Shown in pieces: positions 1,331-40,646 of a DNA stretch of 41,213 nucleotides. Positions within the stretch are counted from its first letter, which is position 1. Each line of letters starts with the position of its first letter. Below the pieces are notes generated by a model. That model made no database searches, was not told where the DNA came from, and saw only the letters and a program-made list of their open reading frames with translations. Source of the stretch: a virus (Duplodnaviria; Heunggongvirae; Uroviricota; Caudoviricetes); the IMG/VR virus record IMGVR_UViG_2554235185_000012. One strand, given 5' to 3'. The translations under genes and the position numbers were made by a program.

Positions 1331-1345
1331 GCTTTTTTATACTAA
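1331..1345. repeat. attL: attL core (GCTTTTTTATACTAA), followed by lambda P-prime arm sequence
   Basis: Exact 15-bp lambda core; downstream sequence matches the lambda attP P-prime arm up to the int stop. Confidence 0.9.
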
Positions 1346-1418
1346 GTTGGCATTATAAAAAAGCATTGCTTATCAATTTGTTGCAACGAACAGGTCACTA
1401 TCAGTCAAAATAAAATCA

Positions 1419-2489
1419 TTATTTGATTTCAATTTTGTCCCACTCCCTGCCTCTGTCATCACGATACTGTGATGCCATGGTGTCCGACTTATGCCCGAGA
1501 AGATGTTGAGCAAACTTATCGCTTATCTGCTTCTCATAGAGTCTTGCAGACAAACTGCGCAACTCGTGAAAGGTAGGCGGATCCCCTTCGAAGGAAAGAC
1601 CTGATGCTTTTCGTGCGCGCATAAAATACCTTGATACTGTGCCGGATGAAAGCGGTTCGCGACGAGTAGATGCAATTATGGTTTCTCCGCCAAGAATCTC
1701 TTTGCATTTATCAAGTGTTTCCTTCATTGATATTCCGAGAGCATCAACATGCAATGCTGTTGGGATGGCAATTTTTACGCCTGTTTTGCTTTGCTCGACA
1801 TAAAGATATCCATCTACGATATCAGACCACTTCATTTCGCATAAATCACCAACTCGCTGCCCGGTAACAACAGCCAGTTCCATTGCAAGTCTAAGCCAAC
1901 ATGGTGATGATTCTGCTGCTTGATAAATTTTCAGGTATTCGTCAGCCGTAAGTCTTGACCTCCTTACCTCTGATTTTGCTGCGCGAGTGGCAGCGACCGG
2001 GTTTGTTGTTATATGGCCTTCAGCTATTGCCTCTCGGAATGCATCGCTCAGTGTTGATCTGATTAACTTGGCTGATGCCGCCTTGCCCTCGTCTATGTAT
2101 CCATTGAGCATTGCCGCAATTTCTTTTGTGGTGATGTCTTCAAGTGGAGCATCAGGCAGACCCCTCCTTATTGCTTTAATTTTGCTCATGTAATTTATGA
2201 GTGTCTTCTGCTTGATTCCTCTGCTGGCGAGTATTTTTTCGTAGCGATCAAGCCATGAATGTAACGTAACAGAATTATCACTGTTGATTCTCGCTGTCAG
2301 AGGCTTGTGTTTGTGTCCTGAAAATAACTCAATGTTTGCCTGTATTGCTTCAGTAATTGCTATCCTCCTGTCTCTGCCTAATCCAAACTCTTTACCCGTC
2401 CTTGGGTCCCTGTAGCAGTAATATCCATTGTTTCTTATATAAAGGTTAGAGGGTAAATCCCGGCGCTCATGACTTCGCCTTCTTCCCAT
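1419..2489 (-). CDS. int: Lambda-type integrase (tyrosine recombinase)
   Basis: 356 aa beginning MGRRRSHERRDLP, recognised as near-identical to lambda Int; adjacent to attL. Confidence 0.95.
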   Translation of the reverse strand: MGRRRSHERRDLPSNLYIRNNGYYCYRDPRTGKEFGLGRDRRIAITEAIQANIELFSGHKHKPLTARINSDNSVTLHSWLDRYEKILASRGIKQKTLINYMSKIKAIRRGLPDAPLEDITTKEIAAMLNGYIDEGKAASAKLIRSTLSDAFREAIAEGHITTNPVAATRAAKSEVRRSRLTADEYLKIYQAAESSPCWLRLAMELAVVTGQRVGDLCEMKWSDIVDGYLYVEQSKTGVKIAIPTALHVDALGISMKETLDKCKEILGGETIIASTRREPLSSGTVSRYFMRARKASGLSFEGDPPTFHELRSLSARLYEKQISDKFAQHLLGHKSDTMASQYRDDRGREWDKIEIK

Positions 2490-2685
2490 TTCTGATCCTC
2501 TTCAAAAGGCTACCTGTTACTGGTCGATTTAAGTCAACCTTTACCGCTGATTCGTGGAACAGATACTCTCTTCCATCCTTAACCGGAGGAGGGAATATCC
2601 TGCATTCGCGCACCCATCGACGAACTGTTTCAAGGCTTCTTGGGCGTCGCTGGCGTGCGTTCCACTCCTGAAGTGTCAAGTACAT
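2467..2685 (-). CDS. xis: Excisionase Xis (72 aa)
   Basis: MYLTLQEWNARQRRPRSLETVRRWVRE matches lambda Xis; 3-prime end overlaps the int start as in lambda; the longer ORF in the track is an upstream extension. Confidence 0.9.
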   Translation of the reverse strand: MYLTLQEWNARQRRPRSLETVRRWVRECRIFPPPVKDGREYLFHESAVKVDLNRPVTGSLLKRIRNGKKAKS

Positions 2686-2799
2686 CGCAAAGTCTCCGCA
2701 ATTACACGCAAGAAAAAGCCGCATTGATGCGGCGATGGTAGGTCTGGATATCATTGAGCAATGAACAGGCCTCATCGAGTGTGAGGCTGTATGGCTCCA

Positions 2800-3105
2800 T
2801 TATTTCACCTCTTGTTGTGACATTGTTGAAAAATGGATACCAGCTCGTTGCTGCCAGATGATCCAACCGAGAGTCATATCCCATGCCATGTATTCGTTAT
2901 TGCCGTTTTTTGCTCTCCGACGATCTACTAAGTCACCGAAACGCTTTTCCATGAATAATTCATAAGCTTCGCGTTCATCTGGTTCTACTTCCAGAGATAG
3001 GAGTGCGATTTCATAAGCACGGCGCTCAATATCGTCTCGCACGTCAAGGCTGCTGATACGCTCTTTAATTTCTTTAATCAGTTCTTTGTCGGTAAAAGTG
3101 GTCAT
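2800..3105 (-). CDS. Hypothetical early protein (101 aa, YfdT-like size and position)
   Basis: ORF in the leftward early operon; acidic; stop/start abutting the next gene. Confidence 0.5.
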   Translation of the reverse strand: MTTFTDKELIKEIKERISSLDVRDDIERRAYEIALLSLEVEPDEREAYELFMEKRFGDLVDRRRAKNGNNEYMAWDMTLGWIIWQQRAGIHFSTMSQQEVK

Positions 3106-3467
3106 TATGCTCCAGCCTCCGGTGCTTTTGGCATTACTGCCCAGTGAGTGATATTGACGTTTTCAAGGTCCCCGACCTGAAATGTCCACTGCCATTCTCC
3201 GGTTTCTTTTTGTCCCCAGGTGTACCAGAGAGAACGCCAGCCAATTAGCCAGCCTTCTCCGTTAGCATCGAATAACAAAACACTTTCATTTGCTGGTGGC
3301 AGTTCAGTTGACACTGGTATTACTTTGTTTTCCTGTGCTGCACATTTAGCTTCAAGCGCATCGAATTTACGCACCAGGTATTCAGCATCTGTTTCATTTA
3401 CTTTCAGATCTCGCGGTACACATCTCCCACGAAGAAACCCTTCCATTTCGAAAACATTCATGCGCAT
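3105..3467 (-). CDS. DUF551-type phage protein (120 aa)
   Basis: Trp-rich C-terminus ending ITHWAVMPKAPE, typical of DUF551 proteins. Confidence 0.55.
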   Translation of the reverse strand: MRMNVFEMEGFLRGRCVPRDLKVNETDAEYLVRKFDALEAKCAAQENKVIPVSTELPPANESVLLFDANGEGWLIGWRSLWYTWGQKETGEWQWTFQVGDLENVNITHWAVMPKAPEAGA

Positions 3468-3994
3468 TTGCGTAACTCCGATAACTCGTTAAAGCGTTCC
3501 ATAAACATCCCGTAGGCATGGCCCGGTGCCAGTGGAATCACGTTGAACATCTCTGTTGCCGGGATACCTTCCAGTACAGGCCAGAAAGAGCCATCATCAA
3601 GCCCGAGATCGCGGCGTTCGGTTGCCAGCATGATGAGATCGGCATATTTCACGGGCGTACTCATAACTGGGGGTAATCCGTATTTCTCACGGATTACGGA
3701 GTCTATTTTTTCTTCCATTTGTTTATAGTCAGGAAGAAGGCGTTTCAGTGGTGCGGGAATGTCCTGGCAATACGCTTCTGTTGCATCATGCATTAACGCT
3801 TCAAAAGCAAATTCCTGCGGCACCAGCTGGCTGCAAAGAACCGCATGTTGGGCGACGCTGTAGAAGTGCGAAAGATGACCGGCAAAGCGACAGATATTTG
3901 AAAGGGAAACCGCGATATCGTTAATATCGATGTCGTCTTTATTTATCCTGTCATAATAAAAATGCTTCCCGGAAAAAGTTTTAATAAATGACAT
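3458..3994 (-). CDS. HD-domain phosphohydrolase (YfdR-like 5-prime-deoxynucleotidase family), 178 aa from the ATG at 3994
   Basis: His/Asp-containing motifs (HDATE, HFYSVAQH) consistent with an HD domain; GGAGAA Shine-Dalgarno before the internal ATG; the track ORF starts at an upstream GTG. Confidence 0.6.
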   Translation of the reverse strand: MSFIKTFSGKHFYYDRINKDDIDINDIAVSLSNICRFAGHLSHFYSVAQHAVLCSQLVPQEFAFEALMHDATEAYCQDIPAPLKRLLPDYKQMEEKIDSVIREKYGLPPVMSTPVKYADLIMLATERRDLGLDDGSFWPVLEGIPATEMFNVIPLAPGHAYGMFMERFNELSELRKCA

Positions 3995-4121
3995 TTTGTT
4001 CTCCACGTATATGCGCTGCACCGCGCTGAATTCTGGTAAAAAGAATCCCTCACCATCCGGCGATTATTGAGTAAATTACGTTTCCATAAATGCCCCCGCA
4101 GGGGCATTTGCAGTAATGAAA

Positions 4122-4946
4122 TCAGGCGGTGAAAGTACCAATAAAGGTTTCTACTTTGCTGTCCTTGAATTTCTCAACAAGCAGATCACGAAATTCGTTA
4201 GCCATTTCTTCCTGCCCCGCCTCCAGCTGAATAATGCGCAGAACCAGTACCGGACGATCGCCAGTGATAATGCTGAGGCGTAATTTAAACGGACGTTCTT
4301 TCAGACCTTCAAACGGAATGCATTTAAATTCAAATGCCACTGGCATAATGTCTTTGGTCTTCGCTTCGACAGACTCCATCAGGGAGCGTTTGCCGCTGAA
4401 GTCATTATCTTCAAAATCAGCGGTCTGGTTTGCTTCAATCGTGATTTTACGGACCGCCGCAGCCGCTTTTGTTGCCTGAATGGTGTCACCATTAGCATCA
4501 AAGCCCACAAGGTAGTCGGCCCAGTCTTCAATCCATTCTGCCAGTGATTTCTGGGAGTTACGCTCGCCATTAACAGACAACAGAGCAGAGAACGGTGCTG
4601 TCTTTTTCAGTTTGAGAGTGGCGGTGTTATCTGCGTGACCTGGTTCATCAATAGTACCCAGGTTAAGCACACTGACGGCACGCATATTATCAGCATCGAT
4701 AAAGCAGCGGGTGCCTTCATCTGCAAGATCTTTAGAATAACGGGTAAAGTCATCGATGCTGGCAGTGGAAAGCGCACCACGGAAACGGAAGCGATTTAAA
4801 TTAAATTTTTCCAGATCATGAATGCGGAAATTCTCAGGCAATGCCACAGCATCGGCACCAATCTTACTGATAATTTCATTAACACCCTGAGCAGAAATAA
4901 GGGCATGGATTTGATTAATTGCGGTTGCGTCTAAGTTCTGAGACAT
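4122..4946 (-). CDS. YfdQ-like protein (DUF2303 family), 274 aa
   Basis: Size and position match the YfdQ family of E. coli prophages; GAGGA Shine-Dalgarno upstream. Confidence 0.55.
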
Positions 4947-5011
4947 AATAAGTCCTCACTATATAAAGATATTCAGTGATGAGATAAATAATCAGTTAAT
5001 TAAGAACGATA

Positions 5012-5374
5012 TTAATGACCTGCTGCGCGGAGTTTTCCGTCAGGTTCACCGGCAAGAGTCAGTAATTGTCCCTGGTCTTCCTGCAGAATAGTCAGGCGAC
5101 CACCGCGATTGACATACATCGGCGTTTCGGTGGTGTCTTCTTCGGAAATTTTCCCGCGGTTAGTCGGGCGAACATATGAGAGTTTGTGTTTGATTTTCAC
5201 ACGGTTCTCATCAAATGGTTCGATTTCCAGGTTGAGTGAGACCTTACCTTTGGTTTTCGTGTTCATCACACCGGAAGCGACTTCACTGAGAACTGCGCCG
5301 ATTTTGGTTTCAAATACGCCGCCGTCCAGCTCCCCGATAAATGCCTGCACATCAGTACTGCGTTCGCTAGCCAT
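5012..5374 (-). CDS. Hypothetical early protein, 120 aa (YfdP-like size); real start at the internal ATG at 5374
   Basis: AGGAGCAGCAAA precedes the ATG of MASERSTDV; the 226-aa track ORF has an Arg/Cys-rich non-protein-like extension. Confidence 0.55.
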   Translation of the reverse strand: MASERSTDVQAFIGELDGGVFETKIGAVLSEVASGVMNTKTKGKVSLNLEIEPFDENRVKIKHKLSYVRPTNRGKISEEDTTETPMYVNRGGRLTILQEDQGQLLTLAGEPDGKLRAAGH

Positions 5375-5811
5375 TTTGCTGCTCCTCATCATATCGACCC
5401 TGCAAGGCCGATTAGTTTCTCCACAAAACAGAGAAGAACACCTGCGGTAGCAGCCGCCCGGATGGATTGGGTTATGAGCCCGTCGTCCGGTGATGCTCTT
5501 CTCTGTTTTGTAAAAAGGACGGTACCAGCCGGAAGCAAGGGTACAAACTGGTACCGCCAGGACTACACACAGCATAAAGTTGTGGTGCCGGGTGCCTCCC
5601 GGTGCCTGGCGAAGGTTGCACACCAGACGGGTGGGTATCCACAGAAGGTCGACTGTCAGCCTCAACCTTAACCCGCGTGCGCTGAGCCGCATTCACCACA
5701 ACGCTAAGGATTCTCTTTGGTTGAAAATACTTAGCTGTTATGTGCCTGTCTTTTCACCACTTCAGGCTCGGTGGTATCCTTTTAAGCCCGTATACATAAA
5801 AGGAAAATCAA

Positions 5812-6057
5812 ATGACTTTTGATGAAAAAGAACTTGATAATGCAATTAATAAAATCATCGTAACGTCGCTCTTTTTCTGTCTCAGCGACACTCAGCAGAA
5901 ACAGTTCTACGAATCGGCTTTCAACATGATCGAGCGTTGTTGTTTCTGCGATGCCGACGAGTTACCTGAAAAAATCAGGAAACAGTTGGCTGATGCTCTT
6001 CGAGTGCGACTTTCTGACCAATTTTCTGAAATGTGCTCTCCGAATTTGGACAAATAG
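5812..6057 (+). CDS. Hypothetical small protein (81 aa), antisense to the early-left operon
   Basis: AAGGAAAA Shine-Dalgarno 8 nt before the ATG; overlaps the 3-prime end of the minus-strand ORF 5975..6250, so only one of the two is likely real. Confidence 0.3.
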   Translation: MTFDEKELDNAINKIIVTSLFFCLSDTQQKQFYESAFNMIERCCFCDADELPEKIRKQLADALRVRLSDQFSEMCSPNLDK

Positions 6058-6250
6058 AAAAAGGCCATTTCCATTCAGGGTCTGATGGAAATACTTCAGC
6101 CTGTTCCAAAGCACGGCGTAAAGAGAACACAACTCCAGCCATAATCTGATGTTTCCCATTGGTCCAGCTATCGCCGCTCTGATCTACAGGGGCGGCTATG
6201 TCGTATGACCAAACGACTTCACAGTTATTGTTTAAAATCTGGACTTTCAT
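5975..6250 (-). CDS. Hypothetical first gene of the pL operon (91 aa from the internal ATG)
   Basis: GCAGGTG Shine-Dalgarno before ATG(MKVQIL); Trp-rich; not Arg-rich, so not N-like. Confidence 0.35.
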   Translation of the reverse strand: MKVQILNNNCEVVWSYDIAAPVDQSGDSWTNGKHQIMAGVVFSLRRALEQAEVFPSDPEWKWPFSICPNSESTFQKIGQKVALEEHQPTVS

Positions 6251-6373
6251 TTCATACACCTGCTTTAACATGAGTGCCTGGTGGCACAACATGACTCAAC
6301 GAATCATCCTGGACTTCATATGCCCCAGGCGGCTACTTCGTGGGCGTCCTGCCTGTTCGTTGTCGGTAAAATG

Positions 6374-6418
6374 ATATTGCTACTTAAAGTTGCAAAAATC
6401 AACTACAAAAAGTAGAAG
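6374..6418 (-). promoter_or_regulatory. Putative pL promoter and oL operators (leftward)
   Basis: On the minus strand TTGATT -N17- CAATAT; spacer carries GCTACTTAAAGTTGC, similar to the oR palindrome. Confidence 0.4.
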
Positions 6419-6721
6419 TTAAGGGCATAAAAACGCATTTTGAAATTAATTCATTGAATTTACAGGTAAAATATTTTGGGGGCTATGATCAAAAAATTAT
6501 ATTGTGAAGTTAGCTGAGTTGTAGAACGTGATGGATTGTTTCATTGTGGCTGAGATCAGTATGTGATCTAGTTAATCATCAAGTGGGGAGAAGTCAATCA
6601 TGAGAGTATTGTTGAGTTTTTGGAGGCTAAGTGTAAAACGGTAGGGAATTTACTACTCAATGGATTGTGTGATTTAGCCTCGATAGTAAGAAAACTAGGG
6701 CAGGTCATAGTCAAAAACTTA

Positions 6722-7006
6722 TCAAAACATAAATTTGGCGAGACCTAAAATCGCCAAGCCTGTTGCAACAGTCCATGCGATCTGTTTATTTACGGCTGAT
6801 GAAATAGCGCTGTTGACTTCACTTAGGCTAGGTTTTTTTGACAACTTTTCATCTATATCTATTTGTTTTTGAAGGATAACAGCGACATCGCGTCGGGTGT
6901 CGGAGAGAGCGTTTCGCAAATCACGAATGTCAGCTCTCATCTCTGCGAGATTTGTTTTTATATCCTCAACATTCGCTTCTAACTTAGCGACTCGGGCTTC
7001 AAGCAT
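6722..7006 (-). CDS. Coiled-coil protein with C-terminal transmembrane anchor (94 aa from ATG 7006; possible 5-prime extension to 7093 or 7129)
   Basis: GGAGGTGATGAC Shine-Dalgarno before ATG(MLEARVAKLEAN); heptad-like N-terminus and hydrophobic tail AWTVATGLAILGLAKFMF; last gene of the cI transcription unit. Confidence 0.55.
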   Translation of the reverse strand: MLEARVAKLEANVEDIKTNLAEMRADIRDLRNALSDTRRDVAVILQKQIDIDEKLSKKPSLSEVNSAISSAVNKQIAWTVATGLAILGLAKFMF

Positions 7007-7073
7007 GTCATCACCTCCGCCATCTCCACCGTGTCTTCTAATTGTGGGAAGTTCACTATTAAATGGTACTACA

Positions 7074-7421
7074 TTATTTTGCGGCGTCGGCATTTTTTTC
7101 ATCTTCCGTTTTTGCTGGGAACTTTTCATTTACCCAGTTCAAAACTGAAAACGCATTTATATGAATTTCATTTCCACAATTGTTGCATATTAGTGAAAAG
7201 TAATACTGGTTAGCAGTATCAGAATAAATGCTTTTTTCAGTAAAAACATTCACATAACTACCAAGTTTCATAGTACATGGCATGCCCACATTCGCGCTGA
7301 CTTGAGGCACAGTCAATCTGTCGTGTCCACATAGTGTACATTTTAGATATATATTCTTTTCTGAGAAATAAGAGACCAACATATCCATGTTAATCTTTTC
7401 GAATCCCTGCTCACTAGCCAT
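7074..7421 (-). CDS. Cys4 zinc-ribbon protein (115 aa), immediately downstream of cI
   Basis: CxxC pairs at C28/C31 and C79/C82; AAGGG Shine-Dalgarno; start 15 nt after the cI stop; visibly AT-rich. Confidence 0.55.
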   Translation of the reverse strand: MASEQGFEKINMDMLVSYFSEKNIYLKCTLCGHDRLTVPQVSANVGMPCTMKLGSYVNVFTEKSIYSDTANQYYFSLICNNCGNEIHINAFSVLNWVNEKFPAKTEDEKNADAAK

Positions 7422-7436
7422 TATATGCCCTTAGAA

Positions 7437-8177
7437 CTATAACCGATTGTATTTTATTGACTCATGAATCAACGCCTTGCCCATTACATAAAGCTGATCC
7501 TGCGATTTTTCATCGATGTACCATTTCTCATAGGCAGGGTTATCCGAAAGAACGGCTAGCTTGTCACCTTGCATTTGAAGACGTTTAACATGAAAAGTCT
7601 TACCGTAAACGAAAGAGTAAATTCCATCAGTCTGGAAGTGACGAACAGAAATGTCGACAAACAGTCGATCTCCGGAAACGAGAGTAGGGGACATACTATC
7701 GCCATTTACAGTCATAACCTTAATATCATCCTGAGAACGGTTACCGAAAAGAGAACGGGCATGTTCTGTTGTGAACTCAATGGCGTAGAGCACATCAACA
7801 TAGTCTGAAAGCATATAGGTTCCAGGTCCTGCGCTAACGCTAAGATCTAAAACTTCTATCCTGTATACGTCGGGTTTTGTTGGATTGGGGATGCTTGCCA
7901 TTTCCTTACATCCTTCTCTCTCGCCAACACCATATTCTAAATATGAAGCCGATACCCCCAGAGCCAACGCAAGTTTATTCATGACAGAGGCACGAGGCTT
8001 CGCTGCGCCGATTGTGTATCGCCGCGCCATTTCATATGTAACGCCAACAAGACTTTTGAGTTGGGTGACAGAAATTCCCTTGTTTGTCATTAACTCGTTT
8101 AGTCTCTTGGCGAAATCTGGATACTTCTGTTCTTCTACCATAGGTAGAAGATTACTCACATCACATACGCTCGTCAT
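7437..8177 (-). CDS. cI: CI-type prophage repressor (HTH plus S24 LexA-like autopeptidase domain)
   Basis: N-terminal HTH (GISVTQLKSLVGVTYEMARR), C-terminal GDSM serine and KRL lysine motifs; divergent from cro; start chosen at ATG 8177 as a leaderless pRM product (alternatives at 8198 or 8141). Confidence 0.8.
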   Translation of the reverse strand: MTSVCDVSNLLPMVEEQKYPDFAKRLNELMTNKGISVTQLKSLVGVTYEMARRYTIGAAKPRASVMNKLALALGVSASYLEYGVGEREGCKEMASIPNPTKPDVYRIEVLDLSVSAGPGTYMLSDYVDVLYAIEFTTEHARSLFGNRSQDDIKVMTVNGDSMSPTLVSGDRLFVDISVRHFQTDGIYSFVYGKTFHVKRLQMQGDKLAVLSDNPAYEKWYIDEKSQDQLYVMGKALIHESIKYNRL

Positions 8178-8180
8178 TTC

Positions 8181-8222
8181 TATTTTAAGTAGTTGCAATT
8201 CGCTACTTTAAGTAGCATTATC
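8181..8222. promoter_or_regulatory. oR operator cluster with pR (rightward) and putative pRM (leftward)
   Basis: pR -35 TTGCAA (8193..8198), 17-nt spacer, -10 CATTAT (8216..8221); 15-bp palindrome GCTACTTTAAGTAGC at 8202..8216; TAAAAT on the minus strand just upstream of the cI ATG. Confidence 0.55.
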
Positions 8223-8248
8223 CCCTCTGGATTTCAGAGGAGAAAGAT

Positions 8249-8512
8249 ATGTCATCTCAAAACTACACCGAGAAAGCAGTAAAGGCTGCGGGAAAGTCTT
8301 TATCTGAAGTAGCTCGTCGCTTTGGTTTTAAATCTACTCAATCTGTCGCTAATTGGGTAATTAACAATCAAGTCCCGTCGGAACGAGTTTTACAACTTTG
8401 TGAGCTGGGGAACTGGTCCGTAACCCCCCATGAGCTGCGTCCTGATATTTATCCAAATCCAAATGATGGATTACCAGAGTGCTATTCAAAAGTTAGCGGT
8501 TCAGTTGCGTAA
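8249..8512 (+). CDS. cro: Cro-like HTH regulator (87 aa)
   Basis: First gene downstream of pR, divergent from cI; GGAGAAAG Shine-Dalgarno; HTH-like segment LSEVARRFGFKSTQSVANW. Confidence 0.65.
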   Translation: MSSQNYTEKAVKAAGKSLSEVARRFGFKSTQSVANWVINNQVPSERVLQLCELGNWSVTPHELRPDIYPNPNDGLPECYSKVSGSVA

Positions 8513-8540
8513 ACGTAACCACAGAAACGAGGAGTTAACC

Positions 8541-9092
8541 GTGGGTAAGCATCACTGGAAAGTAGAAAAACAGCCTGAGTGGTACGTGAAAGCTGTCAGA
8601 AAAACTATCGCGGCGTTGCCGGGTGGTTACGCTGAAGCTGCTGACTGGCTGGATGTAACAGAGAACGCATTATTTAACCGCCTTCGTGCCGATGGCGATC
8701 AGATTTTCCCGCTGGGATGGGCAATGGTTTTACAGCGCGCAGCTGGCACTCACTACATTGCGGATGCTGTCGCACAGTCTGCTGGTGGGGTGTTCGTATC
8801 GCTTCCTGAAATTGAGGAAGTAGAGAACGCCGATATAAACCAGCGCCTGCTGGAAGTCATCGAACAGATCGGGAGTTACTCAAAGCAGATTCGTTCGGCA
8901 ATCGAAGATGGGGTAGTGGAGCCACACGAGCAGACAGCAATTAATGATGAGTTGTATCTGTCAATTTCGAAGCTCCAGGAGCATGCAGCACTGGTCTACA
9001 AAATCTTTTGCGCTCCAGAAAAGAGTGACGCCCGCGAGTGTGCAGCTCCGGGCGTCGTGGCGTTTTGTGTCTGTGGAGAAACTAACGCATGA
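8541..9092 (+). CDS. Putative early regulatory protein (CII/CP76-like), hypothetical; start assigned to GTG 8541
   Basis: GAGGAG Shine-Dalgarno 6 nt before GTG 8541; the track ORF from 8430 overlaps cro; position is that of cII. Confidence 0.4.
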
Positions 9093-9427
9093 ACAGTTTA
9101 ACAACACACTACCGTCGCTCGCAACTGATTGCGCTTCCTGTACCGGGTGGAAAAGCGAAGGTGGAGTATTGCTATGCAGTAAATGTACCAGGTGACAGGG
9201 AAATTGTAACCCACAGCTTTGCAGAGTGGGCTGTGGGTGATTTCAACCGGCAGAAGGAGACAGTCCTTTGCGACAAGTTAACCGCTGGTTCAAAGATCAC
9301 TACGGAGTGCCCGTCAGAGTCATTCGTTGGGAACCGGAAACACAACGGGTTATCTACCTCCGCGAAGGCTATGAGCATGAGTGCTTCAGTCCGCTCGAAC
9401 AGTTTCGTCGTAAATTCAGGGAAATAG
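9089..9427 (+). CDS. Hypothetical protein; reading frame uncertain (a second protein-like frame ends at 9445)
   Basis: ATG overlaps the upstream stop (ATGA coupling); C-terminal half looks low-complexity, while the -1 frame from 9268 reads protein-like. Confidence 0.3.
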
Positions 9428-9436
9428 AGGTCGGTC

Positions 9437-10378: not shown

Positions 10379-10380
10379 GC

Positions 10381-30456: not shown

Positions 30457-30490
30457 AGACGAACAGGGAGGGCCGCCCTCCCTGAACTTA

Positions 30491-30898
30491 CTGTGCGAAC
30501 ACGCAATTTCGGCCTGATGGGGAGCCGACAATTCTGGACATTTTTCCGCAAATAACAGTTACTTGTTCTCCTTTTTTAAGAGCAGCAGCTGTTGATTTTT
30601 CAGAGTCTTGCATCTCCATTCTTGCTGGCATGAATTCATTTTCAGTTCTGAATTTAATAATTATAGAGTCAGTAAAGTCCTTATCAATGGATTGTACGAT
30701 ACCTCTAACGGCGATTAATTTACCTTTTAACTGTTCATCGGTAGCGACTTCATTTTCTTCATACTCTTTAAACAGCTGTCGAGCAGTAGTGTTGTAGATT
30801 TCTTTTTGCGGTGCCGCAGCTTCCGTATCGGATGAGTATGAAGAATTAGAGCCTTTATCGTTACCAGTAAATATTACTACTGATAATAAATATGGGAC
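30491..30898 (-). pseudogene. Start-less protein-like antisense ORF (~136 codons); probable 5-prime-truncated moron remnant or gene with non-canonical start
   Basis: Translated codon by codon: open from stop at 30899..30901 to stop at 30488..30490, first ATG only at 30629..30631; reads protein-like; AT-rich insert between GC-rich tail genes. Confidence 0.4.
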
Positions 30899-32228: not shown

Positions 32229-33307
32229 TGAACGATAACGTCACGCTACGGGTAAATGGCCGGGAGTGGAATGGCTGGACATCGGTGCGCATCGGTGCCG
32301 GTGTTGAACGACTGGCGCGGGATTTCAGTGTGGAGATCACTCGCCAGTGGCCGGGAGATGAGGGTATCACCACGCTTCAGCCGCGCATTAAAAACGGTTC
32401 AAAAGTGGAAGTGCTGATTGGTGATGAGCTGGTGATCACCGGCTGGGTGGAGGCGACTCCCGTTCGTTACGATGCCCGTTCGGTCAGCACCGGTATTGCC
32501 GGACGTAGTCTGACGGCTGACCTGATTGACTGTGCAGCCGAACCGACACAGTTTAACGGACGCTCGCTGGTGCAGATTGCGCAGGCGCTTGCTGCGCCTT
32601 TCGGCATTGAGGTGGTGAACAGCGGTGCGCCGTCGGGTGTTATTCCTGATGTTCAGCCTGATCACGGTGAAACGGTGATTGAGGTAATCAACAAAATACT
32701 CGGTCAGCAGCAGGCGCTGGCTTATGACGACCCGCACGGCAGGCTGGTGATTGGTGGTATTGGCTCAACGCGGGCACATACCGCGCTGGTACTCGGGGAA
32801 AACATCCTTTCCTGCGATACGGAGAAGAGTATCCGGGAGCGGTTTTCTGTTTACCAGGTGGCGGGGCAGCGTGCCGGAAACGACGATGATTTCGGTGAGG
32901 CCACCACCACCGCGCTGCGGGCCCGCACAGAGGACGCATTTATTGCCCGTTACCGTCCGATGTATATCAGGCAGACAGGACAGGCTACGGGGGCTGGCTG
33001 TATTGCCCGTGCGGACTTTGAAGCCCGACAACGGGCGGCGCGGACGGATGAAACCACCTATGTGGTGCAGGGCTGGCGACAGGGTAACGGTACGCTGTGG
33101 CAGCCCAACCAGCGGGTGATTGTCTTTGATCCGGTCTGTGGTTTCGACAACACCGAACTGCTTGTTTCGGAAGTCACGTTTACTCAGGACCAGAACGGCA
33201 CCCTGACGGAAATCCGTGTCGGCCCACCAGATGCTTATCTGCCTGAACCCGAAGCCCCCGGCGCGCGGAAAAAGAAAAAAGCCAGAGTACAGGAGGACCC
33301 GTTCTGA
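32228..33307 (+). CDS. Baseplate hub / tail protein (Mu P-like)
   Basis: Position and size in Mu-type baseplate module. Confidence 0.6.
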   Translation: MNDNVTLRVNGREWNGWTSVRIGAGVERLARDFSVEITRQWPGDEGITTLQPRIKNGSKVEVLIGDELVITGWVEATPVRYDARSVSTGIAGRSLTADLIDCAAEPTQFNGRSLVQIAQALAAPFGIEVVNSGAPSGVIPDVQPDHGETVIEVINKILGQQQALAYDDPHGRLVIGGIGSTRAHTALVLGENILSCDTEKSIRERFSVYQVAGQRAGNDDDFGEATTTALRARTEDAFIARYRPMYIRQTGQATGAGCIARADFEARQRAARTDETTYVVQGWRQGNGTLWQPNQRVIVFDPVCGFDNTELLVSEVTFTQDQNGTLTEIRVGPPDAYLPEPEAPGARKKKKARVQEDPF

Positions 33308-33855
33308 TGAGGACGATTGAAGCCATGCAGCGACAACTCCTCGGCCTGATTGGGCGGGCCGTGGTGAAAAGCATCAGTGCCGCCACGAAATGTCAGACCG
33401 TGGATGTGTCCCTGATTGCCGGTGAACCCAAAGCCGGGGTTGAACATCTTGAACCCTACGGTTTTACTGCAAGGGCAAACAGTGGTGCGGAAGCGGTGGT
33501 GTTGTTTCCGGATGGCGACCGTTCTCATGCGGTGGTTGTTACGGTGTCGGACCGTCGCTACCGCCTGAAAGGGCTGCAGACGGGGGAGGTGGCTGTCTAT
33601 GACGATCAGGGGCAGTCCGTGACGCTGACCCGGGAGGGGATTGTGGTGGACGGTGCAGGTAAAACGATCACGTTTCGCAATGCACCTGAAGCACGTTTTG
33701 AAATGGACCTGGAAGTGACAGGACAGGTGAAAGACCTGTGCGACTCCGGCGGCACCACCATGTCAGCGATGCGGCTTGCCTATAACGGGCATCGTCACAG
33801 AGAGAACGGTCAGGGCAGTAACACCGACAAACCTGATAAATCGATGGAGGCATGA
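33307..33855 (+). CDS. Baseplate assembly protein V-like (spike)
   Basis: Position in Mu-type baseplate module. Confidence 0.55.
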   Translation: MRTIEAMQRQLLGLIGRAVVKSISAATKCQTVDVSLIAGEPKAGVEHLEPYGFTARANSGAEAVVLFPDGDRSHAVVVTVSDRRYRLKGLQTGEVAVYDDQGQSVTLTREGIVVDGAGKTITFRNAPEARFEMDLEVTGQVKDLCDSGGTTMSAMRLAYNGHRHRENGQGSNTDKPDKSMEA

Positions 33856-34280
33856 TGGAACTGTGGCTGACGGTGAACGGTAAACGCACCTGCGCCAGCG
33901 CACCGCTGGATCCGCTGACCCGCGCCGTGGTGATTTCCCTGTTTACCTGGCGGCGGGCGGAGCCTGATGACAATGCCGACGTCCCGATGGGATGGTGGGG
34001 GGATACCTGGCCTGAGGTACAGAATGACCGTTACGGCTCCCGACTGTGGCTGCTTCAGCGCAGCAAACTGACCAATCAACTGGTGCAGACGGTAAGGGGG
34101 TATATCCGCGAATGCCTGCAATGGATGATTGATGACGGCGTGGTGTCCCGTATTGATCTGGATATCCGCCGCACCGGGATTAATGAACTGGGTAACAGTA
34201 TCACTCTCTGGCGTCGTGACGGACCGGTAATGATTTCTTTTGATGATCTGTGGAGTGCGATAACGCATGGCGGACAGTGA
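33852..34280 (+). CDS. Mu gp46-like baseplate protein
   Basis: Order and size in baseplate module. Confidence 0.55.
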   Translation: MMELWLTVNGKRTCASAPLDPLTRAVVISLFTWRRAEPDDNADVPMGWWGDTWPEVQNDRYGSRLWLLQRSKLTNQLVQTVRGYIRECLQWMIDDGVVSRIDLDIRRTGINELGNSITLWRRDGPVMISFDDLWSAITHGGQ

Positions 34281-35325
34281 ATTTCAGCGCCCGACGCTGG
34301 CAGAAAATATCAGTATGCTCCGTAACGATTTATTCGCCAGGCTGGACGTCAGCGACACGCTCCGGCGCATGGATGAAGACGTGCGGGCAAAGGTGTATGC
34401 GGCGGCGCTGCATACGGTTTACGGGTACATCGATTATCTGGCAATGAACATGCTGCCTGACCTGTGCGATGAGTCCTGGCTGGCGCGACATGCTGCGATG
34501 AAACGGTGTCCGCGCAAGGGGGCCACGGCTGCCAGCGGGTATATGCGCTGGGAAGGTGTCAGCGATGGCCTGAAGGTGACCGCCGGAAGTGTTATTCAGC
34601 GCGATGACCTGGTTCAGTACACGGCAACTGCCGATGCAACCAGCACCGGTGGTGTCCTGCGCGTGCCGATCGCCTGCTCAAGTGCAGGCGCGGTCGGTAA
34701 CGCTGACGACGGTACGTCATTAATCCTGGTCACGCCGGTTAATGGTCTGCCGTCTTCCGGCGAGGCAGATACCCTGACAGGTGGATTTGATACTGAAGAG
34801 CTGGAAACGTGGCGCGCCCGCGTCATTGAGCGGTATTACTGGACGCCTCAGGGCGGGGCTGACGGGGACTATGTCGTCTGGGCTAAAGAAGTGCCCGGCA
34901 TTACCCGCGCATGGACATACCGACACTGGATGGGAACGGGGACTGTCGGTGTGATGATTGCCAGCAGTGACCTGATTAACCCCATTCCGGAAGAATCAAC
35001 GGAAACGGCGGCAAGACAACATATCGAGCCACTGGCCCCGGTGGCAGGCTCTGATTTGTATGTATTCAGGCCGGTGGCGCACAAAGTGGATTTTCATATC
35101 CGCGTGACGCCGGACACACCGGAAATACGGGCTGCCATCACCGCGGAGTTGCGTTCATTCCTGCTGCGTGATGGTTATCCGCAGGGAGAGCTTAAGGTAT
35201 CGCGTATCAGTGAAGCGATTTCCGGTGCGAACGGGGAATACAGCCATCAGTTGCTTGCTCCGGCGGACAATATCTCCATTGCAAAAAATGAACTGGCGGT
35301 TCTGGGGACGATTTCATGGACGTGA
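34267..35325 (+). CDS. Baseplate J-like protein (Mu gp47-like)
   Basis: 352 aa; order in baseplate module. Confidence 0.6.
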
Positions 35326-35900
35326 CAAACGATGATTACATCCGTCTGTTGTCGGCACTGTTGCCCCCTGGTCCGGCGTGGTCAGCCAGCGATCCGGCGA
35401 TTGCCGGTGCGGCACAGTCATTAACCCGTGCTCATCAGCGTGCGGATGCCCTGATGCGGGAGCTGGATCCGCGCACCACCACCGAACTGATAAACCGCTG
35501 GGAGCGTCTGTGCGGCCTGCCGGATGAATGTATTCCGGCAGGGACGCAGACCCTTCGCCAGCGTCAGCAACGGCTGGATGCGAAGGTTAACCTGGCGGGT
35601 GGCATCAATGAGGATTTTTACCTTGCGCAGCTTGCTGCCCTGGGCAGACCAGATGCCACCATCACGCGATACGACAAAAGCACGTTCACCTGCTCATCGG
35701 CCTGTACTGACGCGGTGAATGCGCCGGAATGGCGGTATTACTGGCAGGTCAATATGCCAGCTGCCACCAACACCACCTGGATGACATGTGGCGATCCCTG
35801 TGATTCCGCACTGCGTATCTGGGGGGACACCGTTGTCGAGTGCGTGCTTAACAAACTCTGCCCGTCGCATACCTACGTAATTTTTAAATATCCGGAGTAA
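35316..35900 (+). CDS. Mu gp48-like (YmfQ/DUF2313-type) tail protein
   Basis: Order, immediately before tail fiber. Confidence 0.55.
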
Positions 35901-35903: not shown

Positions 35904-36836
35904 ATGCATCGTATAGACACGAAAACCGCGCAGAAGGATAAGTTCGGCGCGGGTAAGAACGGTTTTACCCGTGGTAACCCCCAGACCGGCACGCCTGCCA
36001 CCGATCTGGATGATGACTACTTTGACATGTTGCAGGAGGAGCTTTGCAGCGTGGTGGAGGCATCCGGTGCCAGCCTGGAGAAGGGGCGGCATGACCAGTT
36101 GCTTACAGCGCTTCGTGAGCTGCTGTTAAGCCGCAAGAATCCGTTTGGCGATATCAAATCGGATGGCACGGTGAAAACGGCTCTCGAAAACCTTGGTTTG
36201 GGAGATGGCTCGGGGCGTTACAGCAAAACTGTCGTTTTTTCATCGTCGGGTTCATATACGTGGCCAGCTGACGTAAAACGAATTGACGTTATTCTGACTG
36301 CGGCGGGCGGCGGTGGCGGTGGATGTAACGCGGAGAACGCAAATCAGACATTTTCAGGGGCTGGCGGAGGAGCCGGAGGTACTGTTTTTGCCACTATTTA
36401 TGCGACAGACAACGATGCCGGGCCAGGAACCTATACAGTGACAATTGGCAGCGGTGGTAGTGGTGCCAATGGGGCAGGGTCTGGAAATAATGGCGGTAAT
36501 AGTTCGTTCATGACATTAACTGCGCTCGGCGGCCAGGGTGGGCAATGGGGCGGCGCTACAAATACCGCTGGCGGGCGCGGTGGCTCAGGTTCTGGCGGTT
36601 ATAAAACTGAACAAGGCGGAGACGGTTCAGACGGACAGGCGGGCCAGGCGCTATTAGTAGGCAATGGGGCATCGAGCTATTGGGGTGGCGGCGGCCGCGC
36701 TGGGCAACTGAGCGGTAATCCTGGAGTTTGCTCTGGCTCCGGCGGCGGGGGTGCATACGATAATAGCTATTCACACACGTCAGGACGTGGCGGGCACGGA
36801 GCTAATGGCGTGCTGGTAATTCGGGAGTACATGTAA
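35904..36836 (+). CDS. Tail fiber protein with conserved N-terminus and glycine-rich C-terminal domain
   Basis: N-terminus [26 protein letters not shown] typical of side tail fibers; C-terminal GGxGG-rich segment; followed by tfa. Confidence 0.75.
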
Positions 36837-37241
36837 ATGAATGATGTCTATGCAGTTGTTGATAATAACGTTGTTATTAATGTCATTATCTGGGACGGAA
36901 TTTCTGAATGGAAACCAGAGGCTGGTAATTTAGTTCCGTTAAACGGCGATGCTGGCATCGGTTGGTCATATTCAGACGGAGTATTTACCGCGCCACCTCC
37001 CCCAGAACGCTCTCACAACGCGTTAGTTGCGGAGGCTGAGCTGCAGAAATCAGCACTACTGACCGTAGCAAATAACGCAATAGCACCGCTGCAGGATGCC
37101 GTTGATTTGGAAATGGCGACAGACGATGAACAGACGTTACTGCTGGCGTGGAAAAAATACAGGGTACTGCTGAACCGTGTTGATACCTCAGCGGCACCCG
37201 AAATAGAGTGGCCTACGCAACCGGGGGAGCGGGCCAGTTGA
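36837..37241 (+). CDS. tfa: Tail fiber assembly protein (Tfa)
   Basis: C-terminus [33 protein letters not shown] typical of Tfa chaperones. Confidence 0.8.
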
Positions 37242-37470
37242 TATCAGGCGCAGCGTCAGCATCAACTGCTGTCACTGCGTCGATGTAGTCGAGTACCGCA
37301 TTCAGCCGCGTTTTTTCATCATCAGTCAGTTTGCGGCCTGCACTTCTCCGTTGGCATCTTTGTTATATGGTACAACTGCGCAGAGGCCTGTCTCTTCAAT
37401 TGTGCCAGTTGAATACTACGATACAACGCTCGGCCTTCCTGTTTGGTGGAACATAACCACATCCACATGG
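37213..37470 (-). pseudogene. Inverted, frameshifted remnant of a second tail fiber assembly gene
   Basis: Minus-strand translation gives [37 protein letters not shown] (Tfa C-terminus) ending at 37213, convergent with tfa; upstream Tfa-like text lies in another frame. Confidence 0.5.
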
Positions 37471-37539
37471 AAAAGAGCTGATGGTGCAGATGTATAATTC
37501 TGGTGCCGCGCATGCGGCACCAATAAAAAACATATTAAA

Positions 37540-39015
37540 CTAAAGTGAATCTATTCCATTTTTCCAAATAAGAACTTTTTTGTCTTGTATTTTATGAGTG
37601 CTATCAGGCTGCCCAAACTGTTTTATGGCCTTTTCCTCTTGCTCTACATCATCAGCAATTAAAAAATTAGCTCCTTTTTGGTACCATTCTTTTTTTGATA
37701 ACCAATTATATGGTGTGAATCTATCACCATACGACTCAAATGGAGCTACGTTGATATCACTAAATCCAGCAACAGATGATGCAAACCAAAATGATGCATA
37801 ACCTCTTTGTAGTTTATTTTTTATTAAGAAATCTCTTAATTCTATTGTAATATCATTTTTATTAACAATGTTTTTTGTTGTTGCCATCGTTGGCAACGAT
37901 AACGCAATAACGATTAATGATATTAGTAAATTTGTCTTCACTGGTAAGGAGAAAGAATTTCTAGCAATCACAATTGACATGAAAATAAACGTTGGGACTA
38001 TGTATCTAATTGAGAAAAGATTTGTTGGCCTGTCACTTGAAACATAGGCAATCAACATGACTAATGATGATACAATAAGAACCTGGTCAATAAAATCAAT
38101 TTCTTTAAATTTAAGAATGTTTTTATAAGATAAAAATAAGAATACAAAAATGAAAAACACCTTTATCATGGTGAATAATGAGTTAAAGCTACCTATCTCC
38201 ATTCCAAACGCGTACCCACCAAAAAATTTGAATACGCCCATGATAACAAGAGATATGTTGCTTGTTATTTGTTGAAACTCTACTATGTGAGGTTTGGTTA
38301 TGCCTGGCAGGTTAAATCCACCAAGCTTAATGAATATAAATGATATGAGCTCAGCAATAAATATAGATGATATAGTGAAAACCAACAATAACAAATCATT
38401 AGTATTCAACGAATCTCTTTTCATTAGAGAAGCATACATTCTATATATGCAAACAAAAACTATAGGTATTATAAAGGCATATTTAGATATATCATCACTA
38501 AAAACAAGCAACGATAACATAAATACATATGGAAAAAGTAATTTTAAATCATTTTTCTTTCTGTATCTATCTATTATTAGTATGATCGCCAGCATGTAAA
38601 TGTACGCACCAATATGTATACATGCTATAAGCATTATACTTGATGAGAAAACCGTTGGAATTCCAAATACAGAAAGAACAGGCCATAACGATGCCCTGCT
38701 TTTAGTATGAGAGATATATAGCGATAGTGTTACTAACATAGACATGAAAATTCCAGGCACAATATAGTACAGATTTTCATTAAATCCTATTATTTTTATC
38801 GCTATAGCATATGGTATTATTTCTGTGAAATAGAATGATACAGTTGATAAATCCCACCCACTGAGAAAAATATTTCCTTCAGTAATATCCCTTGCCTCTC
38901 TGAATGAAGACATGACATCTGAGTTTGGAATTATGTTTTTAGCAATCATTGAGTAAATTATTGATAATACAATAAATGTTGCCAGCCAATATAAAAGCTC
39001 AAGCTTCTTGCTCAT
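37540..39015 (-). CDS. Serotype-specific O-antigen glucosyltransferase (GtrC-type polytopic membrane protein)
   Basis: 491 aa, many TM segments, very AT-rich; directly downstream of gtrB and gtrA. Confidence 0.7.
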
Positions 39016-39929
39016 TTTTTACCCTTAAGTACATACTTTGGACGCTGCTTAACTTCAATGTAAATTCTACCAATATACTCACCGAGCACTCCAATCCCAA
39101 TTAACTGGATGCCGCCAAGAAATAATATTGATACAAGAATTGAAGGGTATCCAGGTACATTATTATCAAAAATTAATTTATCAATTATCATCCATGAACC
39201 GTATGTAAATGATATACATGCAATAAATAACCCAATATAGGTCCACATGCGAAGCGGGAATGTTGAGAAGCTAGTGATCCCTTCCAGCGCCAAGTTCCAT
39301 AGCTTCCATCCATTGAACTTTGTGCTTCCTGCAACGCGTTCTGCTCGCGCATATTCTACGACATCGGTTCGACCACCAACCCAGCTCAGCACACCCTTCA
39401 TAAACAGGTTTCGTTCTGGCATGAGCTTAATGTTTTCTACTACTTCGCGAGACATGAGCCGGAAGTCGCCAACATTCTCTTCTATCTGAGGGTTGCTGAT
39501 TTTGTTATGAAGTTTATAGAACCACTCAGCAGATTTACGCTTCAGCCTGCTGTCAGTGGAGCGGTCAGAGCGTTTAGCCAGAACCATATCTGCACCGGCC
39601 TGCCATTTCTCTATCAAGTGAGGAATAACTTCGATAGGGTCTTGCAGATCAACGTCAATCGGGATAATTGCCTCCCCGGTAGCATGGTCCAGACCTGCGA
39701 ACAGGGCGGGTTCTTTGCCGAAGTTACGTGTGAACGACAGCGAAACAACAAGCGGGTCGGCAACAGCAAGCTCGTTGATAATTGATTCTGTAGCGTCTTT
39801 GCTGCCATCGTTTATGAAGACTATCTCGACTTCATGCTGCTGAAGCCCTTCAAATTCGCGCACAGTTTTATAAAAAATAGGTATCGTGGCCTCTTCGTTA
39901 AAGACCGGAACGACTAAAGAAATTTTCAT
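39012..39929 (-). CDS. gtrB: Bactoprenol glucosyltransferase GtrB (GT2 family)
   Basis: N-terminal GT2 domain ([17 protein letters not shown]) and two C-terminal TM segments. Confidence 0.85.
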
Positions 39930-40288
39930 TTCGCATCCCTAAAGACAATGAACTTTGAATAGACGAAACCGCACACCAGGCTGATGGCGGAGAAGGTGAC
40001 AAGAGTTATCATCGGGGGAAGTGCGCATCTATCAGCAGCCCATCCAACAGTAGCACTGAGTGTTCCCATGAACCCGACATATAACATGTAGCGCATCGTT
40101 GTAGTTGATGCTTTGAATGTGAATTTTGCATTCGCGAAGAAGCTAAAACTCACAGCCACAACGAAACCTGCGAAGTTTGCCAGAGCCTGATTGGTATGCG
40201 CGGCATAGATACATACACCAAAAACCACCCAGTGTATAAGTGTGTTCAGCACACCAATCGAGGTGTACCTTGCAAATATATTTAACAT
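39926..40288 (-). CDS. gtrA: GtrA flippase-like small membrane protein
   Basis: 120 aa, four hydrophobic segments; overlaps the gtrB start. Confidence 0.8.
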
Positions 40289-40450
40289 TTATTTAATCAA
40301 TGAGTTCTGAAAGGTATGAAGTCTATCATCCAAGTCTCAATCGATCGATACTTGCGGTAGTTGATGAGGAAAACTCTGGTACACAAAGCTTTGCACTGGA
40401 CTGCAAGGTGTTGTGCTTCTCTGGAGTGCGATATGTTTGATGACAAAAAA

Positions 40451-40485
40451 TTAGCGCAAGAGGACAAAAAATCACCTTGCGCTAA
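40451..40485 (-). terminator. Inverted repeat TTAGCGCAAG-N15-CTTGCGCTAA with T-run on the minus strand (insulator upstream of the gtr promoter region)
   Basis: Perfect 10-bp inverted repeat; minus-strand reading places TTTTTTGTC after the hairpin. Confidence 0.35.
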
Positions 40486-40631
40486 TGCTCTGTCTCAGGT
40501 CACTAATACCATCTAAGTAGTTGATTCATAGTGACTGGATATGTTGTGTTTTGTAGTATCATGCAGTCTATTTTTTAGACTAAATGTATTTTAACACATT
40601 GATATTATTGGCTTTTGCTGTTTTGCGTTCA

Positions 40632-40646
40632 GCTTTTTTATACTAA
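40632..40646. repeat. attR: attR core (GCTTTTTTATACTAA), preceded by a lambda-like P arm and followed by host B-prime
   Basis: Exact core; downstream CTTGAGCGAAACGGGAAGG is the host side of attB lambda. Confidence 0.9.

Follow-up and report, generated by a model that had tools for sequence, protein, structure and literature searches.

A prophage of the SfV lineage with a lambda integration cassette and a gtrABC operon at the lambda attachment site of Escherichia coli PCP06238

What kind of phage occupies the lambda attachment site in the IMG/VR virus record IMGVR_UViG_2554235185_000012, and what does it bring to its host? The window, which is the whole stretch of 41,213 nucleotides that was analysed, had been described from its letters alone (the sequence-only reading) as a mosaic prophage with the integration genes and endolysin of lambda, an HK97-type head and a Mu/SfV-like contractile tail. 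Its sequence identifies the element as a temperate prophage of 39.3 kb that belongs to the SfV/SfII/SfI/e14 lineage. It sits in the lambda attB because a lambda integration cassette has replaced the thrW-type integration module of this lineage. Its main cargo is the operon gtrABC, which had gone unrecognised in the sequence-only reading. The same holds for several cargo genes on the opposite strand (morons).

The window matches positions 3459660-3500872 of the chromosome of E. coli PCP06238 (NZ_CM129870.1) with 100% identity in reverse complement. This strain originates from seawater of the Galapagos. The 15-bp lambda core GCTTTTTTATACTAA is present in exactly two copies in the window and had no match in shuffled sequence:

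1331-1345, no strand: attL core (B-O-P' junction), an exact match to the 15-bp overlap region of lambda, read in its context
40632-40646, no strand: attR core (P-O-B' junction), an exact match to the 15-bp core of lambda

The 39.3 kb of the prophage are flanked by ybhC on the left (1-1284, minus strand) and by ybhB on the right (40737-41213, minus strand), which places it in the lambda attB. Joining the ybhC and ybhB flanks yields what we take to be the attB sequence. Since the core was found only twice and the flanks rebuild this presumed attB, the coordinates given in the sequence-only reading for a prophage at this site are exact. A tRNA scan of the window found none.

In order to determine the extent of the lambda contribution, the window was compared with lambda (NC_001416) by means of blastn, and the identity of the arms was additionally read in 100-bp blocks. 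Lambda homology is confined to three stretches. The first, 1331-2733, is 98.1% identical to lambda 27724-29126 and spans the core, the P' arm, int and xis. The second, 40377-40650, is 87.2% identical to lambda 27470-27742 and spans the tI/sib region, the P arm and the core. The third comprises 396 bp of the endolysin gene. The features of the first two stretches are:

1346-1418, no strand: P' arm, 100% identical to lambda in the 100-bp blocks
1419-2489, minus strand: int, lambda-type tyrosine integrase of 356 amino acids, 99.2% identical to lambda Int
2467-2685, minus strand: xis, lambda excisionase of 72 amino acids, 98.6% identical to lambda Xis
40437-40490, minus strand: hairpin on the int-sense strand with a U run after it, folding energy -33.1 kcal/mol, z -3.5, aligning with lambda
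40472-40631, no strand: P arm, a variant of that of lambda, with mismatches listed by position

Int and Xis had been called essentially those of lambda, and this is the case. Int differs by three substitutions (P14S, H164P and I248V) and retains all six catalytic residues (R212, K235, H308, R311, H333 and Y342); the sole change in Xis is G59S. The cores and arm sequence had been described as lambda-identical as well. This is correct for the cores and for the P' arm, where the first approximately 400 bp past the left core are 100% identical, but not for the P arm, which contains 25 mismatches across the 160 bp left of the core. The final 60-80 bp of this arm are only about 70% identical to lambda. 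The mismatches are unevenly distributed: there is a single change between about -143 and -87, and the stretch from -86 to -14 is clearly diverged, although a match to the IHF-like sequence YAANNNNTTGATW persists there. We assume that the sites P1, H1, P2 and X1 fall into the nearly unchanged stretch and that X1.5, X2/F and H2 fall into the diverged one. An identical variant of the P arm is present in E. coli 042 (prophage 042p1). The hairpin aligns with the region that we take to be tI/sib of lambda and is, as in lambda, separated from int by integration; retroregulation of int may thus be retained.

Three-way alignments locate the recombination junctions at approximately 2725-2738 and 40375-40381, with SfV-type sequence directly inward of each. 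Because SfV-type sequence resumes at both junctions, the lambda contribution is, judged by these alignments, a single cassette of 1.66 kb (sib/tI-attP-int-xis, lambda 27470-29126). At the switch point of the right junction (40375-40410), SfV/SfII and lambda share a patch of about 35 nucleotides that is, by eye, roughly two-thirds identical. This patch may be a boundary element common to both that mediated the module swap.

The remainder of the prophage was assigned to modules by means of blastn; the near-match search of the immunity region took in 50,697 phage records. From left to right, the map reads:

2738-6363: early-left genes, best match SfV, 99.4%
6364-8516: immunity region, without a near match among the 50,697 phage records, found full-length in 16 genomes of E. 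coli
8516-14066: from the CII-like gene to the DUF968 gene, best match SfII and 689R6, 95-97%
14066-15443: Q-like gene followed by an unknown gene, no match among the phage records
15443-16772: lysis cassette, SfV, SfII, SfIV and 720R4, 86-92%
16772-18177: cargo gene pair, restricted to 14 genomes of E. coli
18194-30459 and 30899-36205: head, tail and baseplate, SfII, SfI and SfV, 97-98%
36205-39034: tail-fibre tip, tfa and gtrC, only E. coli 042, 98.6%
39034-40408: gtrB, gtrA and the region upstream of them, Sf phages, about 80%

Gene for gene, the order is that of the annotated SfV and SfII genomes, and the DNA identity to these phages is 95-99% across most of the prophage. In this lineage, the gene order resembles that of lambda, the head is of the HK97 type, packaging is of the cos type and depends on HNH, and the contractile tail is Mu-like. 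The blastn matches and junction alignments thus bear out a mosaic, in which a lambda integration cassette lies within SfV-type modules. The whole-genome comparison with SfV-like phages, which the sequence-only reading had suggested as a check, does not support its framing, as the element is an SfV-family phage with a small lambda share. The exact combination of modules was found in one of 5426 complete genomes, that of PCP06238, and the next best genomes cover about 80% of it; every module and every junction occurs elsewhere too.

Downstream of the tail genes and adjacent to attR, the strand changes and three genes follow that are arranged exactly as in SfV (37540-40288):

37540-39015, minus strand: gtrC-type gene encoding 491 amino acids, about 30% GC, 99.4% identical in protein to Ec042-0853 of strain 042
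39012-39929, minus strand: gtrB, 86% identical in protein to GtrB of SfV, annotated as GT2 by the Prokaryotic Genome Annotation Pipeline (PGAP)
39926-40288, minus strand: gtrA, 86% identical in protein to GtrA of SfV, GtrA family according to PGAP

Because it carries this O-antigen glucosylation operon, the element is a candidate serotype-converting phage. Its GtrC had no match among Pfam (including the GtrII-type family), NCBIfam and PADLOC families. In a search of 5.8 billion proteins, homologues beyond its own cluster were limited to 16 clusters, all unnamed and 28-62% identical, which come from E. coli, Salmonella, Serratia and Citrobacter. In the alignment, the residues D33 and D43 of the first loop are invariant. 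No significant similarity of GtrC to GtrV or GtrII was detected; the identity to GtrI is 22% over 311 amino acids. The protein is a polytopic membrane protein with approximately ten hydrophobic segments. Its AlphaFold model (predicted local distance difference test score 84.9, predicted template modelling score 0.86) has its best fold matches in the PDB among PglB, STT3, ArnT, DPY19, AftA and AftB, all of which are GT-C enzymes, with template modelling scores of about 0.5. Since the fold matches are of the GT-C type and no curated model matched, we regard GtrC as a GtrC-type transferase of an uncurated family. In the lysogen, GtrB would make undecaprenyl-phosphate glucose, GtrA would flip it across the membrane, and GtrC, with its predicted GT-C fold, would transfer the glucose, so that the O antigen would gain a glucose side branch.

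The predicted modification can be set against the O antigen of the host. PCP06238 carries wzx/wzy of the O17/O44/O73/O77/O106 group with approximately 100% identity (NZ_CM129870.1 1951360-1953968), and the same cluster is present in E. coli 042 (L012:22297-24905). It occurs in 93 of the 5426 complete genomes. The gtrC allele of the window was found in 11 records. At least six of these are among the 60 O77-group genomes listed, namely 042, PCP06238, GN05505, FDAARGOS_1288 and LP-26-E1-261 (two records). The DG strains also belong to the O77 group; like GN06156, they carry a similar prophage in the lambda attB with a different gtrC. Strain 042 is O44:H18 and harbours the prophage 042p1, the cargo of which is gtrAB and Ec042-0853 (PMC2808357). 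In a review, the glucose side branch of O44 has been ascribed to a gtr prophage (PMC7685785). Because GtrC shares 99.4% identity with the GtrC of 042, an O44:H18 strain, and the backbone genes of the O77 group are present in the host, serogroup O44 is the predicted outcome of combining the two.

The prophage 042p1 (ROD15) of the enteroaggregative strain 042 is also a close relative of the element as a whole. It extends from 877116 to 917926 with a 15-bp direct repeat, is half lambda/P22-like and half SfV-like, and was judged by its authors to hold all genes for a functional phage (PMC2808357). The two prophages share the insertion site with its 15-bp direct repeat, a lambda-type int (98.9% identical in protein) and the protein accession of xis. 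Furthermore, they are 98.6% identical in nucleotides from the HNH gene through head, tail, fibre, gtrC, gtrBA and P arm to ybhB. They differ in the early half, which is lambda/P22-like in 042p1 and comprises N, kil, RecT, a CII-family protein, its own replication protein with a DnaB-type helicase, ninB to ninH, another Q and another lysis cassette. In comparison, the window adds an SfV-type early half, a gene pair that includes a ClpP-like protein, and a gene for a protein of 159 amino acids.

After induction, SfI, SfII and SfV were observed to be myoviruses; their packaging is of the cos type and their integration site is thrW (PMC3636060). With SfV, SfII, SfI and SfIV, the window shares the gene order from early-left through the tail to gtrC-gtrB-gtrA beside attP, nucleotide sequences that are 95-99% identical in the early-left, nin-like, head and tail parts, 86% protein identity of GtrA and GtrB, and cos packaging with an HNH protein and a P27-type small terminase. 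These phages have an integrase of 387 amino acids and use tRNA-thrW (PMC3636060), a site next to proA, whereas int, xis and att of the window are those of lambda; Int of the window and Int of SfV align over only 48 amino acids (E = 0.008). The immunity region, Q, the tail-fibre tip and gtrC differ as well. The induced E. coli phages vB_EcoM-720R4 and 689R6 and the K-12 elements e14 and CPS-53 are 96-98% identical in nucleotides over the early-left, replication/nin-like and morphogenesis regions. Many genes of the window bear names of K-12 cryptic-prophage genes (yfdG, yfdH, yfdN, yfdP to yfdT, ymfL, ymfQ, ymfR and stfP), which we assign to e14 and CPS-53. These four relatives differ from the window in their integration modules; in the record of 689R6, an integrase adjoins an isocitrate dehydrogenase gene. 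In addition, 689R6 has a DNA invertase beside its tail fibre genes, and the phage records of both 720R4 and 689R6 lack a gtr cassette. GN06156 (L013, NZ_CP095529.1 1634000-1678000) carries a sibling prophage at this site, the early region of which is likewise of the SfV type. There, an IS3 element lies within the KilA-N gene, rusA is frameshifted, a cargo gene with a TIR domain occupies the place between Q and holin, and gtrC is a different one, of the glucosyltransferase-domain type.

Does the prophage have what is needed to build a virion? The packaging and structural genes are arranged as follows:

18194-20894, plus strand: packaging, with HNH endonuclease, cos region, P27-family small terminase and large terminase
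20906-26198, plus strand: HK97-type head and neck, identified by Pfam, SfII counterparts 92.7-100% identical in protein
26207-30456, plus strand: contractile tail, with DUF2635 protein (Mu gp38-like), sheath, tube, assembly chaperone and tape measure
30903-35900, plus strand: Mu-like baseplate, 97.5% nucleotide identity to SfII, SfI and SfV
35904-37341, plus strand: host-range module, with hybrid tail fibre, tail-fibre assembly protein and inverted tfa remnant
37213-37341, minus strand: inverted tfa remnant, a fragment of a second tail-fibre assembly gene

The cos region, at approximately 18545-18660, is where the linear records of SfII, SfV and SfI begin. Pfam supports the P27-type small terminase and the large terminase, with the HNH gene next to them. 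The head and neck genes code for YmfR, portal, S78 prohead protease, major capsid protein, connector, head closure, neck and tail terminator, and match Phage_portal, Peptidase_S78 and Phage_capsid in Pfam. The matches of the tail genes are three sheath domains, Tail_tube, DNA_circ_N and Baseplate_J. The baseplate genes code for the DNA circularisation protein and for homologues of gpP, gp45, gp46, gp47 (Baseplate_J) and gp48. For each of the 22 core head-to-baseplate genes of SfII, and likewise for its HNH gene, the window has a counterpart that spans the full length without gaps, at 92.7-100% protein identity; only the C-terminus of the tail fibre and the fibre assembly protein differ from the SfII set. 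The Pfam families and these counterparts confirm the HK97-type head and the Mu/SfV-like contractile tail. The modules had also been described as complete, with which these counterparts and the S24 self-cleavage domain of cI agree.

The tail fibre is one intact open reading frame of 310 amino acids with an SfV-like N-terminus of 105 amino acids and a glycine-rich C-terminus, and it is 100% identical to the fibre of 042. A broken fibre, as the PGAP label "partial stfP" would imply, was rejected, as this feature and the second PGAP feature, "glycine-rich", lie in frame within the uninterrupted reading frame. The host-range module has no invertase, whereas 689R6 still has one; with its inverted tfa remnant, it looks like the relic of an invertible segment.

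The early region contains the genes that would govern the lysogenic state and replication:

2800-6250, minus strand: early-left operon, 99.4% nucleotide identity to SfV 21981-25605, characterized by annotation, Pfam and PHROG
6380-6415, no strand: candidate left operators, two CTAC-N5-GTAG palindromes, with the pL region
6722-7421, minus strand: pair of unknown genes that follow cI, in the rex position between cI and OL, searched with Pfam, PHROG and PADLOC
7437-8141, minus strand: cI repressor, matching HTH_3 and Peptidase_S24 of Pfam
8135-8215, no strand: three CTAC-N5-GTAG sites in the cI-cro interval, candidate right operators
8249-8512, plus strand: cro-like regulator
8541-9092, plus strand: CII-like YmfL, matching Phage_CP76 and phrog_101 (CII-like activator)
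9268-10869, plus strand: replication module, with DUF4222 protein, O-like initiator and YfdN/PerC-domain protein
9437-10378, plus strand: O-like initiator, matching phrog_391 ("replication initiation O-like", 1.6e-135) and HTH_36
10375-10869, plus strand: YfdN/PerC-domain protein
10869-14057, plus strand: nin-like region, 95-97% nucleotide identity to SfII and vB_EcoM-689R6
14072-14650, plus strand: late antiterminator, Q-like, matching DUF1133 (6.5e-90), Phage_antitermQ (9e-9) and phrog_753 (Q-like)

The early-left operon encodes a yfdT-like product, a DUF551 protein, the HD 5'-deoxynucleotidase YfdR, YfdQ (DUF2303), YfdP and a protein of 91 amino acids similar to that of SfV orf33, which occupies the position of N and belongs to no known family. 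In scans of every early protein with Pfam and PHROG, no match to the families of N, Exo, Bet, Gam, Erf, lambda P, DnaC or DnaB was obtained. The absence of an N-like antiterminator, of exo/bet/erf recombination genes and of a separate helicase-loader gene had been correctly reported. It was rejected as an anomaly, because the annotated SfV record has no N, exo/bet or P-type loader gene either; the annotated SfV and SfII records have the same gene set, and the absences are therefore family traits. The O-like initiator also has weaker matches to PHROG families that bear the label primosomal or DnaD-like helicase loader, and the loader function may therefore reside in this protein. The nin-like region contains a Dam methylase, a protein with the DNA-binding domain of LexA, the resolvase RusA, a KilA-N protein and a DUF968/HNH protein. 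In the early-left region (5389-5699, minus strand), PGAP flags a frameshifted hypothetical gene; the same flag is set in GN06156.

The repressor is 36% identical to cI of SfII and retains the motifs GDSMS and VKRL. Given its architecture of HTH and S24 domains with these motifs, it is plausible to assume a RecA-stimulated self-cleavage. The candidate left and right operator regions form an inverted repeat of 57 nucleotides and have the usual OR/OL layout. The two genes at 6722-7421 code for a coiled-coil protein of 126 amino acids with a C-terminal membrane anchor and for a Cys-rich protein of 115 amino acids with two CxxC pairs; no functional family was found for this pair in Pfam and PHROG. 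The Q-like protein is unrelated to Q of lambda or SfV. Regulation would accordingly rest on a self-cleaving cI of the S24 type with new immunity, which would act on the CTAC-N5-GTAG operators flanking the immunity region and would be removed upon SOS induction. The early genes would be expressed without an N-type antiterminator, replication would be begun by a single O-like initiator, and the DUF1133 Q-like protein would activate the late operon, which extends from the lysis to the tail genes. For excision, Int and Xis would recombine attL with attR.

The lysis genes and the remaining cargo genes are listed here:

14732-15211, minus strand: unknown cargo gene between Q and holin, 159 amino acids, matching only an unannotated PHROG
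15464-16803, plus strand: lysis cassette, 86-92% nucleotide identity to SfIV, SfV and 720R4
15464-15805, plus strand: holin, 94.6% identical to S of SfV and 25% to S of lambda
15809-16285, plus strand: GH24 endolysin, 93.7% identical to R of SfV and 88% to R of lambda in protein
16269-16661, plus strand: Rz, SfV-like and not lambda-like
16546-16803, plus strand: Rz1
16831-18018, minus strand: cargo gene pair, flanked by lysis cassette and HNH gene
30488-30874, minus strand: OB-fold "Sie-like" cargo gene, matching tRNA_anti-like (4e-16) and phrog_8545 ("superinfection exclusion Sie-like")

The description of the endolysin as essentially lambda goes too far. At the DNA level, its gene is 86.1% identical to lambda R over 396 bp, the protein is closer to R of SfV, and neither holin nor Rz is lambda-like. 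Judged by these identities, the supposed lambda endolysin is part of an SfV-family lysis cassette, and a lambda-R-like endolysin is normal for this family.

The cargo pair encodes a protease-like protein of the ClpP fold (186 amino acids, CLP_protease 2e-12), in which Ser and His residues are apparent, together with an unknown protein of 182 amino acids. It is present in 14 of the 5426 E. coli genomes, where it always adjoins Rz1, and may be an exclusion or defence module. The OB-fold gene sits between the tape measure and the DNA circularisation genes. Its alignment with phrog_8545 starts only at profile position 42 and its reading frame contains no ATG, GTG or TTG start codon; it is therefore probably truncated at the 5' end. 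The gene is also present in E. coli 042. In its place, other genes are found in phage 720R4 and in GN06156, suggesting a position that is prone to insertions. No significant match to a known defence system in PADLOC or NCBIfam was found for the ClpP-like pair, the gene for the 159-residue protein, the two genes downstream of cI or the OB-fold gene.

How well does the proposed reading stand against alternatives? The one that survives best is a fixed defective prophage that looks intact but would neither excise nor form particles, and would be kept for gtr and its other cargo. The divergence of the P arm from lambda between about -86 and -14 would speak for it, yet the same variant is present in 042p1, which was judged complete for function (PMC2808357), and Int has its catalytic residues and Xis a single change. 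Possible signs of decay are the inverted tfa remnant without invertase, the apparently truncated OB-fold gene and the frameshift flagged by PGAP. The last of these is probably not a real defect, as the SfV record, 99.4% identical across 5389-5699, lists no gene in this stretch. Related prophages in the lambda attB, for example that of GN06156, carry insertion sequences and frameshifts; in the window, the core head-to-baseplate genes of SfII and the HNH gene are all full-length and gap-free, and cI keeps its S24 motifs. A defective prophage is therefore unlikely.

A true lambda derivative (Lambdavirus) that has acquired foreign late genes is far less probable. Int, xis and the P' arm, with 98-100% identity, and the endolysin, with 88% identity to R, would speak for such an origin. 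The window also keeps the attP core and the tI/sib-like hairpin of lambda. Lambda DNA homology is, however, restricted to the three stretches given above, and the cassette runs straight into SfV-type sequence on both sides. Early-left, replication, nin-like, lysis, head and tail regions match SfV, SfII or 689R6 with 86-99% identity. Among the marks of a Lambdavirus, attP, Int and Xis are present at the attB between gal and bio, whereas N, Red and the O/P pair are missing and only an O-like initiator was found; a blastn test of membership by the gpE/gpD head and gpV/gpJ tail detected no DNA homology to lambda 1-27469. The window has neither the head genes and non-contractile tail of lambda nor its N, exo/bet/gam and P, and its cI, Q, S and Rz are unrelated. 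Moreover, members of the SfV family use other integration modules, as the thrW-type int of SfV and the differently located integrase of 689R6 illustrate. An assembly artefact joining two prophages, to which the occurrence of the full combination in only one complete genome might point, is practically dismissed by the ybhC-int-xis-SfV early-left junction at 100% coverage in SCU-482, GN05505 and SW070912, the tail-gtr-attR-ybhB junction in 042 and others, the matching overall arrangement at this site in GN06156, the two exact att cores and the joined flanks that rebuild the presumed attB.

We consider it probable that the element is an SfV-lineage prophage with a lambda cassette, with regulation, excision and O44 conversion as proposed. 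Three points weigh against this. The 25 changes in 160 bp of the P arm, which affect the presumed region of X1.5, X2, F and H2, may alter the efficiency of recombination. The exact combination occurs in a single one of 5426 complete genomes. Finally, the association of gtrC with the O77 group may partly mirror clonal relatedness.

The phage is a new member within the known SfV-type family, and its close relative 042p1 was published in 2010. Shuffling of lambda and SfV-type modules is textbook knowledge, and the phage itself adds little to it. It also offers a case from nature in which Int and Xis of lambda presumably operate with a diverged P arm. O17, O44, O73, O77 and O106 have a single O-antigen gene cluster in common, are at present inseparable by genome-based typing and have been lumped as "O77g", which includes the lineage of a recent outbreak of haemolytic uraemic syndrome (PMC13188871). 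The strains of a genome announcement on O77g were typed in silico only, except for the O17 reference strain, and it offers no link between gtrC and agglutination. We tentatively propose, as a possibility a little short of even, that GtrC is the O44-specific glucosyltransferase and that the gtrC alleles at attB lambda separate O17, O44, O73 and O106 from O77. If this is true, the gtrC allele at the lambda attB would be a candidate marker for splitting the serogroups that are lumped as O77g.

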